IMG/VR virus record: IMGVR_UViG_3300042396_000723
Location: 32,001 to 96,000 of that record
Strand: one strand, 5' to 3'
DNA length: 64,000 nt
Source of the DNA: a virus
The notes under the pieces are model-generated. The model did not search any database. It was given only the letters and a program-made list of their open reading frames with translations, and was not told the origin of the DNA. This document shows positions 59,517 through 60,716 of this stretch, piece after piece; positions within the stretch are counted from its first letter, which is position 1, and each line of letters starts with the position of its first letter. The position numbers were made by a program, and so were the translations under genes.

Positions 59517-59527
59517 GAGATTTAACT

Positions 59528-59620
59528 ATGAGTTTAACGACTAGAAAAGATGCCATGCTAACGGAATCTCAGATGAAGTTGGCGATCGCCCAGACTCTTG
59601 CCCTTCCTTTTATGTTCTGA
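59528..59620 (+). pseudogene. N-terminal fragment of disrupted family member E
   Basis: Translates MSLTTRKDAMLTESQMKLAIAQTLALPFMF then stop; the central ~100 aa of the N-domain is missing before the Cys knuckle. Confidence 0.45.
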
Positions 59621-60716
59621 AATGAAAAAACCCCAATGCGTAAAGCCAACATCATATAACTGCGGAGCGGCTTGTATCAACGTTTCCAAATCTTGCCAAC
59701 AAGTCCCTTCTGAATCTTTTGGGCGATCGCGTCTTCAGAAGTTAAAACAAATTGCTTCTATTTATGCGAAGCAAAACACAGCAAAATCTCAAAGACAAGG
59801 GGCTACGGCTAACAAGATCATAGGATCAATTGAAGAAAAAAGGAAAACTGAAGCGACATCTTTGGCACAAGACAGAAAAGTTATTAACCAAGACCGTAGA
59901 AAAGCTAGGTTAAAAGCCGAAGCAAAAGCCAAGAGAGAGCAACTATTAAAGATGTATGAAGATGTTAGTAAAACGTCAACATCAAAAGGCAATGTCCCCA
60001 AACTTTTGAATACAGAAGCTCCTGACAGGGAGCTAACAAGGTTAAAAAATAAGTACGAAAAGCAATCGGTTGAAACGGCAAAGACCAACCTACAAAAAGC
60101 CGAGAGAGCGCTAAGTAGTGCGCTTAAAACTATAGGGGAGATGAAACAGGAGTCTGATAAATTCCTAGAAGAAACCCGAAAACTGGTACAGGTAGACAAA
60201 CCTACTAAATTAAACTCATCGGTCAAAACCGGAACCCCTAACGCCCATAAAAAAGGTGTTGAGGCGTTCCAAAAAATGATCTCAATTCCAGGCTTGGACA
60301 CTCCAGTTAGTATTGTGGAAACCCCTCCAGAAAGGAAGGGGAGAAGTTGCTACAAACCCAAGACAAATAATGTATTCATGGGTAATTCCGACCCTGCCGT
60401 TGTAGTTCATGAGATGAGTCACTGGCTAGAGGAGAAAGTACCAGGAATCAGAGAGGAAGTTCAGGAGTTTTATAATAAGAGAACCCAAGGCGAGAAAAAT
60501 ATTAAACTAAGTGAAGTTACTGGCAATAAAAACTATGGGGATAGAGAGGTTACAAAGGTTGATAAATGGTTAAATCCTTACATGGGCAAGGAATACAAAA
60601 ACGCCTCTGAAATCCTTTCTATGGGAATGGAAATAATGTACCGCAACCCTGCTTATTTAGCCAAGAATGACCCCGAAATGTTCGACTTTATTTATAGTGT
60701 TGTGAGGAGAGGATGA
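59598..60716 (+). CDS. family member E, N-terminally truncated (Cys knuckle plus HExxH domain)
   Basis: 372 aa track ORF; likely start ATG 59622 (MKKPQCVKPTSYNCGAACINV); C-terminal VVHEMSHW (60408-60422). Confidence 0.45.
   Translation: MPFLLCSEMKKPQCVKPTSYNCGAACINVSKSCQQVPSESFGRSRLQKLKQIASIYAKQNTAKSQRQGATANKIIGSIEEKRKTEATSLAQDRKVINQDRRKARLKAEAKAKREQLLKMYEDVSKTSTSKGNVPKLLNTEAPDRELTRLKNKYEKQSVETAKTNLQKAERALSSALKTIGEMKQESDKFLEETRKLVQVDKPTKLNSSVKTGTPNAHKKGVEAFQKMISIPGLDTPVSIVETPPERKGRSCYKPKTNNVFMGNSDPAVVVHEMSHWLEEKVPGIREEVQEFYNKRTQGEKNIKLSEVTGNKNYGDREVTKVDKWLNPYMGKEYKNASEILSMGMEIMYRNPAYLAKNDPEMFDFIYSVVRRG

Follow-up and report, generated by a model that had tools for sequence, protein, structure and literature searches.

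This research work indicated that a short open reading frame (ORF), located between two late genes (D and E) of a viral genome, is with good confidence the 5' end of a paralogous gene, X1, that was lost through a deletion of about 2 kb, and that the gene array to which it belonged has been reshuffled via the DNA encoding its shared N-terminal modules. The DNA analyzed, hereafter the window, is a stretch of 64,000 nucleotides (nt) corresponding to positions 32,001 to 96,000 of the IMG/VR virus record IMGVR_UViG_3300042396_000723. Genes A to H of this window form an array of paralogous late genes assembled from three modules, namely an N-terminal domain of about 95 residues (N-domain), a four-cysteine knuckle followed by a helix (knuckle), and a variable cargo.

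A profile hidden Markov model (HMM) of the N-domain, built on the full-length members A, B, C, D and G (starting at 44774, 46182, 56125, 57651 and 62134), retrieved all five at E < 1e-46 from the six-frame translation of the window, in which a knuckle HMM found eight copies, one in each of A to H. The sole other significant match to the N-domain HMM was the frame containing the short ORF (open from 59507 to 59617), with E = 3.3e-5 over profile positions 3-22. This fragment, termed the stump, was compared with related loci (designated by L numbers), 40 of which were collected with a profile of the N-domain plus knuckle (N+K) and three more by exact protein sequence look-up, and with the isolate genome of Planktothrix phage PaV-LD (HQ683709).

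A deletion scar between genes D and E

The features of the D-E junction are as follows.

59516-59519, plus strand: GGAG ribosome-binding site of the lost gene X1, overlapping the stop codon of D (59514-59516), 8 nt before the ATG at 59528.
59528-59611, plus strand: stump, codons 1-28 of the lost paralogue X1 (MSLTTRKDAMLTESQMKLAIAQTLALPF), from the N-domain HMM and the alignment to L043.
59612-59621, plus strand: native leader of gene E, ATGTTCTGAA, identical to the 10 nt before the E ATG in L004, L005, L010 and L043.
59622-60716, plus strand: gene E, intact, with its knuckle at 59625-59747, a linker and a C-terminal HExxH (HEMSH) domain, natively without an N-domain (HMM, phrog_33618, orthologues).

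At this junction, GTA-TAG closes gene D and is followed by GGAG, 8 nt and the ATG at 59528, from which a 30-codon ORF runs to the TGA at 59618-59620 (product MSLTTRKDAMLTESQMKLAIAQTLALPFMF). The stump DNA is 81% identical over 52 nt to the N-terminal codons of D. An intact X1 was found directly after D in L004, L005, L006, L008, L009 and L043-L045, comprising, in this order, a complete N-domain, a knuckle of its own, and ART-like and GNAT domains. In L004, L005 and L043, this intact gene displays the same D-stop/GGAG/ATG context as the stump; its product starts MSSTTRKDATPTEPQMKLAIAQTLSQPFAYNAPV / MSSTTRKDATPTEPQMKLAIAQTL, and MSLTTRKDAMLTESQMKLAISQTLSLPFAYNAPV / MSLTTRKDAMLTESQMKLAI in L043.

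The comparison with L043, the closest of these X1-bearing relatives, indicates the nature of the event. Positions 1-8084 of L043 are colinear with 51513-59611 of the window at 93.9% identity, the alignment breaks exactly after X1 codon 28 (L043 8084), and it restarts at L043 10273, which corresponds to 59612, so that the junction lies at 59611|59612 and the window equals L043 minus 2,188 nt. What is missing relative to L043 is X1 from codon 29 to codon 675, an ORF of 63 codons and the spacer until 10 nt before the E ATG, while the loss amounts to about 1.4 kb relative to L005 and to about 3.6 kb relative to L004. The small ORF after X1 (63 residues), like the one after F (91 residues), had no family matches. 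As a complete gene cannot derive from a fragment of 28 codons, the polarity of the event is that of a deletion. Moreover, no homology exists at the break between the two parents (..CCATTT|GCC.. and ..TTGTG|ATG..), which points to an illegitimate deletion and not to a crossover between repeats. A single event of this kind took away the rest of X1 together with the small downstream ORF, and brought codon 28 of X1 next to the native 10-nt leader of E.

A preliminary description of this DNA, made from the sequence alone, had accurately located the ORF (59528-59620) that begins like a family N-terminus and then stops, as well as the cysteine knuckle following at 59622 in another frame. It had nevertheless regarded both as parts of gene E, from which the central ~100 residues of the N-domain would have been deleted. 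The stump and the knuckle actually come from two genes, and the missing DNA amounts to 1.4-3.6 kb, not to ~300 nt. Taken alone, the scar is thus a real but ordinary deletion scar that had been misassigned to gene E.

Two observations can be added regarding this region. The leader of E contains a mini-ORF, ATG-TTC-TGA (59612-59620), whose TGA now terminates the stump ORF; ending 1 base before the E ATG, it is kept in all relatives (L004, L005, L010, L043) despite different DNA upstream, and it may be a start-stop translational control element. The cyanobacterial octamer HIP1 (GCGATCGC) is present in 23 copies in the window versus 0.32 expected (at 45811, 57699, 59582, 62182 and 19 other sites), four copies lying in the 'LAIAQ' codons, which are conserved in the N-termini and stumps of the family.

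Knuckle-first genes, further stumps and alternative explanations

Because the ribosome-binding site and the ATG of X1 were kept, the stump ORF is probably still translated and, as it stops at the mini-ORF TGA 1 base before the E ATG, termination-reinitiation may supply ribosomes to E. The stump might then have been kept for a function, either as an upstream ORF allowing reinitiation at the E ATG (59622) or as a free N-terminal helix peptide. This possibility, compatible with an origin by deletion, is in line with the retained GGAG and ATG of X1, with the in-frame connection to the conserved mini-ORF, and with the E ATG having no Shine-Dalgarno sequence of its own. We consider it unlikely, however, as an in-frame fusion is expected in one case out of three by chance, relatives express E without any stump, the stump displays no excess conservation, and a scan of 55900-64000 for promoters and terminators gave the same counts as shuffled sequence, with nothing above chance. 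The window and PaV-LD are indeed devoid of differences across 59445-59677; as equal or longer identical runs were found elsewhere, this absence of divergence is uninformative on selection, and selection on the stump was rejected as an explanation of this identity.

A second explanation assumes that E was once a full member, disrupted by an internal deletion of about 100 codons that shifted the frame within its own N-domain. Stump and knuckle do lie next to each other and resemble the two ends of one N+K module, yet this explanation is highly improbable in view of the relatives. The ATG of E (59622) lies 1 base past the stump TGA, in a different frame, and opens a protein (start MKKPQCVKPTSYNCGAACINV / MKKPQCVKPTSYNCGAACINVSKSC) of 364 residues that matches phrog_33618 over its full length (E = 7e-208) and corresponds to PaV-LD ORF080R. 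Orthologues of the same architecture are present in L003-L006, L009, L010 and L043. They start at the knuckle behind ...GTG-ATGTTCTGAA-ATG (leader GTGATGTTCTGAAATG in L004, L005 and L010), and upstream of this leader the relatives carry X1 or other genes; the orthologues of L004, L005, L006, L009, L010 and L043 are knuckle-first behind the same 10-nt leader with unrelated DNA before it. The orthologue of the stump is, for its part, a separate gene, X1, endowed with its own knuckle and cargo.

The knuckle-first architecture is, furthermore, not restricted to E. Gene F also matches phrog_33618 end to end, the ATG of H (63659) lies about 35 codons ahead of its knuckle, and the orthologues of E and F are knuckle-first in every relative covering them. 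An exhaustive profile search of 1.84 billion representative proteins yielded 195 relatives, among which at least 10 clusters (50% identity) were knuckle-first, with a match beginning at protein residue 2-9 and at the knuckle part of the profile. Knuckle-first genes are thus a stable gene type and not a product of decay, and E, F and H are not decayed members.

Other stumps were found in the window and in its relatives. The first of these lies between A and B.

45745-45858, plus strand: relic 2, an old stump derived from a B-type N-terminus (leader and about 20 codons; APPTEIQAKLAIAKV from 45781), conserved as a small ORF.

Relic 2 gave a weak match to the N-domain HMM alone (E = 2). Seventeen related sequences preserve it as a small ORF preceding one of 74 codons, and it matches B-type N-termini, including their pre-domain leader LRFDAAPTEVQMKL, with E values down to 5e-7. 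Its 3' end adjoins a strongly conserved promoter-like and ribosome-binding segment upstream of the 74-residue ORF and, in PaV-LD, which has no gene A, it stands directly after the upstream gene. We read it, from these alignments, as an old stump of the same kind as that at 59528. PaV-LD ORF083R (58159-58470; L001 19044-19355), an annotated gene in the slot of gene G, is likewise a 92-codon N-domain stump, produced by a deletion that removed about 1.3 kb in comparison with L043, with a break at 62409 of the window. In loci from three metagenomes (L007 4798-5621, L012 11923-12746, L011 3107-3924), an N+K module is joined out of frame to the 3' half of a downstream HExxH gene, with a loss of about 7 kb of the array. 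A word-indexed protein search returned short fragments only (87-174 residues), which served as stump examples. Knuckle fragments (profile positions 1-15 or 1-22) were also observed between C and D in L004 (6025-6069), L005 (10004-10069), L008 (9897-9941), L009 (985-1050), L010 (9906-9968) and L011 (3042-3086); these are knuckle stumps and not N-terminal ones, and the window has none at that position.

The reverse polarity, in which the stump would be ancestral and X1 inserted in the relatives, appears even less credible than a disruption of E. Nothing specific supports it, and the insertion would have had to complete a 28-codon fragment into a gene with a full in-frame N-domain, a knuckle and a cargo, while the other stumps (ORF083R, relic 2, L007) display the same pattern of deletions retaining the 5' end.

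An artefact of assembly or sequencing at a repeated segment had to be considered as well, paralogous repeats being classic sites of misassembly. The D-E junction, stump included, is matched base for base in PaV-LD, and the identical scar is present in an independent IMG/VR metagenome contig (L003). The region 56100-64000 is 94.7% identical to PaV-LD over 73% of its length, and the two genomes diverge by about 3-5% at positions near the junction. This identity of the junction in separate genomes excludes an assembly error for practical purposes, and the joined sequences share no repeat there. Least probable of all, to the point of being negligible, is a programmed +1 frameshift joining the stump to E: E does lie in the +1 frame relative to the stump, with a stop codon at the shift site, but UUC-UGA-A offers no cognate +1 re-pairing for tRNA-Phe and no stimulatory Shine-Dalgarno sequence, an argument based on what is known of the prfB shift site, and the arrangement is a lineage-specific deletion product that is absent from relatives.

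Exchange of cargo within the array

The other members of the array are the following.

44774-45739, plus strand: gene A, N-domain, knuckle at 45086-45208, ParB/Srx-like C-terminus identified by eye (HMM; absent from PaV-LD).
46182-49466, plus strand: gene B, N-domain, knuckle at 46518-46637, long repetitive cargo (HMM).
56125-57549, plus strand: gene C, N-domain, knuckle at 56503-56625, cargo of unknown fold (HMM).
57651-59516, plus strand: gene D, N-domain, knuckle at 57987-58109, two ART repeats (PF01129, E = 1.2e-5; HMM).
60713-61852, plus strand: gene F, knuckle-first HExxH paralogue, whose start overlaps the E stop (ATGA) (HMM).
62134-63585, plus strand: gene G, N-domain, knuckle at 62452-62574, HExxH cargo (HMM).
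63659-64000, plus strand, running off the window: gene H, last ~20 residues of an N-domain, then a knuckle at 63767-63865 (HMM).

The combination of modules was clearly modulated among relatives. The family genes of the window, of PaV-LD and of the related loci were cut into N-domain, knuckle and cargo, and these parts were clustered separately. In L004, L008 and L011, cargo C8 follows an N-domain of the C type (N2), and in L005 one of the X1 type (N4); cargo C12 was found behind both N3 and N4; N2 was paired with three knuckle types, and N4 with five cargos. The C gene of L004 is a chimera: its first ~390 nt are ~100% identical to the C gene of L005, and the remainder, to the end, is ~100% identical to X1 of L005. 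The switch falls between ...AAGCCGACAGC and TGTGGGAAAGCC, inside the knuckle codons C-V-K-P-T-A|Y-N-C-G. This type of chimera recurs in contigs of three different metagenomes, and its parents share no exact run at the switch that is long enough to mislead an assembler. Similarly, the D gene of L010 has the N-domain of D and, after a crossover about 270 nt from its start, the remainder of X1, and the N+K module of G carries a GNAT cargo in L043 and L010, with a break at 62584, just past the knuckle module. The alignments of gene C to several relatives end at 56627, the end of the knuckle module, and the D gene of L008 has lost one of its two ART repeats.

An all-against-all comparison of 93 distinct family genes, in which the ends of tracts at least 93% identical were collapsed to 72 junction classes, placed 35 of these classes, which are not fully independent of each other, within -120 to +240 nt of the knuckle start, an interval covering about 24% of the median gene length; this proportion is descriptive, and the enrichment past the knuckle partly reflects the onset of fast-evolving, low-complexity linkers. 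Altogether, these sequence comparisons support the view that the array has been shuffled and eroded among related phages and that knuckle-coding DNA is used as a crossover site. The array evolves by two routes, homologous recombination in conserved N-domain/knuckle DNA, shifting cargo cassettes between N-modules, and deletions leaving 5' stumps.

The preliminary description had proposed active shuffling or decay of this family, with the knuckle-coding segment acting as a recombination joint. The breakpoints mapped by alignment around the knuckles, across members and related phages, uphold this in part. One clean crossover lies inside the knuckle (the C gene of L004), tract ends cluster there, and the array is indeed shuffled and eroded among relatives. 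By contrast, the scar of the stump lies outside the knuckle and without homology, and knuckle-first genes are not decay products. The same description had rightly recognized that F and H begin at or near the knuckle and that a second relic lies between A and B, and both relics do align to family N-termini through the HMM and the B-type matches reported above.

Further differences between the window and PaV-LD were observed in or around the array. In gene B, about 790 nt (47718-48604) are absent from PaV-LD ORF061R, and a 50-nt direct repeat at the bounds of this segment (47718 and 48555) points to a repeat-mediated expansion or contraction within the cargo. A segment of 3.7 kb of PaV-LD (42679-46428, ORF065R-068R, including another family member) is missing from the window at 50423-50464, where the join matches both ends of the segment, hence a direct repeat of about 40 nt at this insertion or deletion. 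At the start of PaV-LD ORF079R (53604-53749), the first ~20 codons of the D N-domain are out of frame (HMM positions 2-20, then 14-94), which is either a frameshift or a sequencing error in the record, gene D of the window being intact. Within the window, an exact 25-nt repeat, GATTTTCTTATATAGAAATTATTTT, located at 44233-44257 and 51250-51274, upstream of a 130-residue ORF and of the DUF2213 protease gene respectively, with a degenerate third copy at 51306, may be a late promoter or regulatory box.

Virion context and comparison with known systems

The array lies in the virion module of the genome, together with the portal (41998-43986), the DUF2213 protease (51345-52859) and the major capsid protein (53715-54668) genes; in PaV-LD, the tape-measure gene stands a few genes downstream of the array. 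The portal bears a C-terminal inorganic pyrophosphatase (InPase) domain (PF18823), typical of polyvalent proteins. In GenBank, the PaV-LD orthologues of F (ORF081R) and H (ORF085R) are named 'virion structural protein' and 'minor virion protein', respectively. In Aphanizomenon phage CL131 (L046, 1277-10141), two proteins, gp044 and gp047, start at the knuckle, gp045 has an N+K module at residues 9-133, and gp048 (1,811 residues) has five knuckle-containing module matches, one of which is a full N+K copy. All four proteins were detected in purified virions with liquid chromatography coupled to tandem mass spectrometry (PMC6293099, Supplementary Information Table 5). Considering the gene context, the GenBank names and these proteomic data, A to H would be virion-carried proteins, in head or tail, and probably injected effectors. 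The gp048 gene lies directly upstream of the tape-measure gene and its product is abundant in virions, so that the module may belong to the tail or ejection apparatus rather than to the head.

From a functional point of view, the cargos include ART (PF01129) in D, GNAT in X1 and X2 of relatives, HExxH in E, F and G, recognized by its motif and by a weak match to Zincin_1 (E = 0.14), and a ParB/Srx-like domain in A, seen by eye; an anti-host role of these cargos may be inferred. Apart from this weak Zincin_1 match, Pfam, including at relaxed thresholds, gave no match to any of the N-domain, knuckle and HExxH domain, and the Pfam models MPTase-PolyVal and ART-PolyVal did not match the window members. 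Four cysteines (C111, C119, C123, C130) and G120 are invariant in 39 diverse sequences. An AlphaFold model from the alignment of these 39 sequences reached a predicted local distance difference test (pLDDT) of 84, and of more than 87 in the knuckle region, a first model from 9 sequences being poor (pLDDT 52). In this model, one helix packs against a four-stranded sheet and is followed by another helix, a disordered linker, and then three short strands and a long helix around the four cysteines (putative zinc knuckle or ribbon); a fold search with the N+K model gave generic matches only. The module is N-terminal in 96 of the 114 full matches. Its distant carriers are giant proteins, each with as many as three knuckles, that contain LPD1, InPase, lipase-like and ParB-like domains (LPD1, PF18796, with N+K in P0075; InPase with N+K in P0051 and P0061), and are polyvalent proteins in the sense of Iyer, Burroughs, Anand, de Souza and Aravind (2017; PMC5512222). 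Among isolated phages, a tblastn search with the module found PaV-LD only, and, among the papers searched, we found none describing the PaV-LD-like array family or its shuffling.

Several points speak against the proposed history of the array, besides the dependence among junction classes and the contribution of linkers mentioned above. The parental state was deduced from sister genomes at 87-94% identity, no direct ancestor of the window being available. The relatives are mostly metagenome-assembled contigs, in which replication across samples disfavours chimeric assembly without excluding it everywhere. Over its first 53 nt the stump is identical to X1 of L043, whereas its last 30 nt are closer to D (29 of 30 identical to the N-terminal codons of that gene), which suggests either an extra step of gene conversion involving adjacent paralogues or an unsampled X1 allele. 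As for the virion location, it rests on the GenBank names of two PaV-LD orthologues and on the proteomics of distant CL131 homologues.

We tentatively propose, as a possibility that we rate below even chances, that the N+K module plays a dual role: as a protein, it would be a handle for incorporation into the virion and, as DNA, a joint for cassette exchange between paralogues or co-infecting phages, with knuckle-first genes as donors and stumps as by-products. If true, this would constitute a phage counterpart of the cassette switching of polymorphic toxins, diversifying injected anti-defence effectors. The scar is a dated marker of gene loss in a family not described as such, and the turnover of cargos can be followed directly in natural populations of a phage infecting bloom-forming, toxin-producing Planktothrix. 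Should the cargos be injected anti-defence enzymes, the array would record an arms race with host immunity. The N+K module would also offer a candidate tag with which to load foreign proteins into virions.

In CDI (contact-dependent inhibition)/Rhs polymorphic toxin loci, which contain orphan cassettes, cargo cassettes are exchanged at a boundary motif, VENN or PxxxxDPxGL. The present array resembles them by cassette exchange in a short conserved boundary segment, by downstream copies reduced to this segment (E, F and H, which start at the knuckle), and by the remnants left behind; the crossover in the knuckle codons of the C gene of L004, and the same cargo on different N-domains, are indeed what exchange at a boundary motif entails. 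The likeness concerns the mechanism only, the joint being here a Cys4 knuckle, with VENN and PxxxxDPxGL both absent. Furthermore, unlike silent orphans, the knuckle-first genes seem to be expressed, with packaging of their products in CL131. The internal proteins of phage T4 possess a capsid-targeting sequence. Like these, and like the Dar head proteins of phage P1 (DdrB, as described in PMC5512222), the family would be virion-carried and co-delivered with DNA, with a shared N-terminal element before unrelated cargos and a locus that varies between related phages; the shared element is, however, a folded domain of about 95 residues followed by a knuckle, and not a leader of 10-20 residues.

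The MuF polymorphic toxins that temperate phages carry (Jamet et al., 2017; PMC5576092) similarly combine a conserved N-terminal phage-particle module with a variable C-terminal enzymatic or toxic domain, in the head-morphogenesis region, with a cognate immunity gene downstream. Here, by contrast, several tandem paralogues are present per genome, no immunity genes were identified, the small ORFs after F and X1 not having been examined for such a role, and the hosts are filamentous cyanobacteria. Since a Pfam search found no MuF (Phage_Mu_F) domain in the window members, these do not belong to the MuF toxins.

The closest likeness in domain content is with polyvalent proteins, which contain two to fifteen distinct effector domains per polypeptide (Iyer et al., 2017; PMC5512222). 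The family shares with them characteristic effector domains (ART, GNAT, HExxH peptidase-like, ParB-like), a portal-fused InPase, co-occurrence with LPD families and InPase, and a late virion-gene context, and its distant N+K carriers are giant, multidomain proteins with LPD1 and InPase. Several distinct effectors per polypeptide are found in these distant homologues, yet not in the window members (D has two copies of the same ART domain), where six to nine separate paralogous genes each bear one kind of cargo behind a shared N+K module. With one kind of cargo per polypeptide, the window members fall outside the strict definition of polyvalent proteins. The family is thus polyvalent-protein-like, a split-up, multi-gene form of polyvalent and polymorphic effector systems that had not been described before as such.

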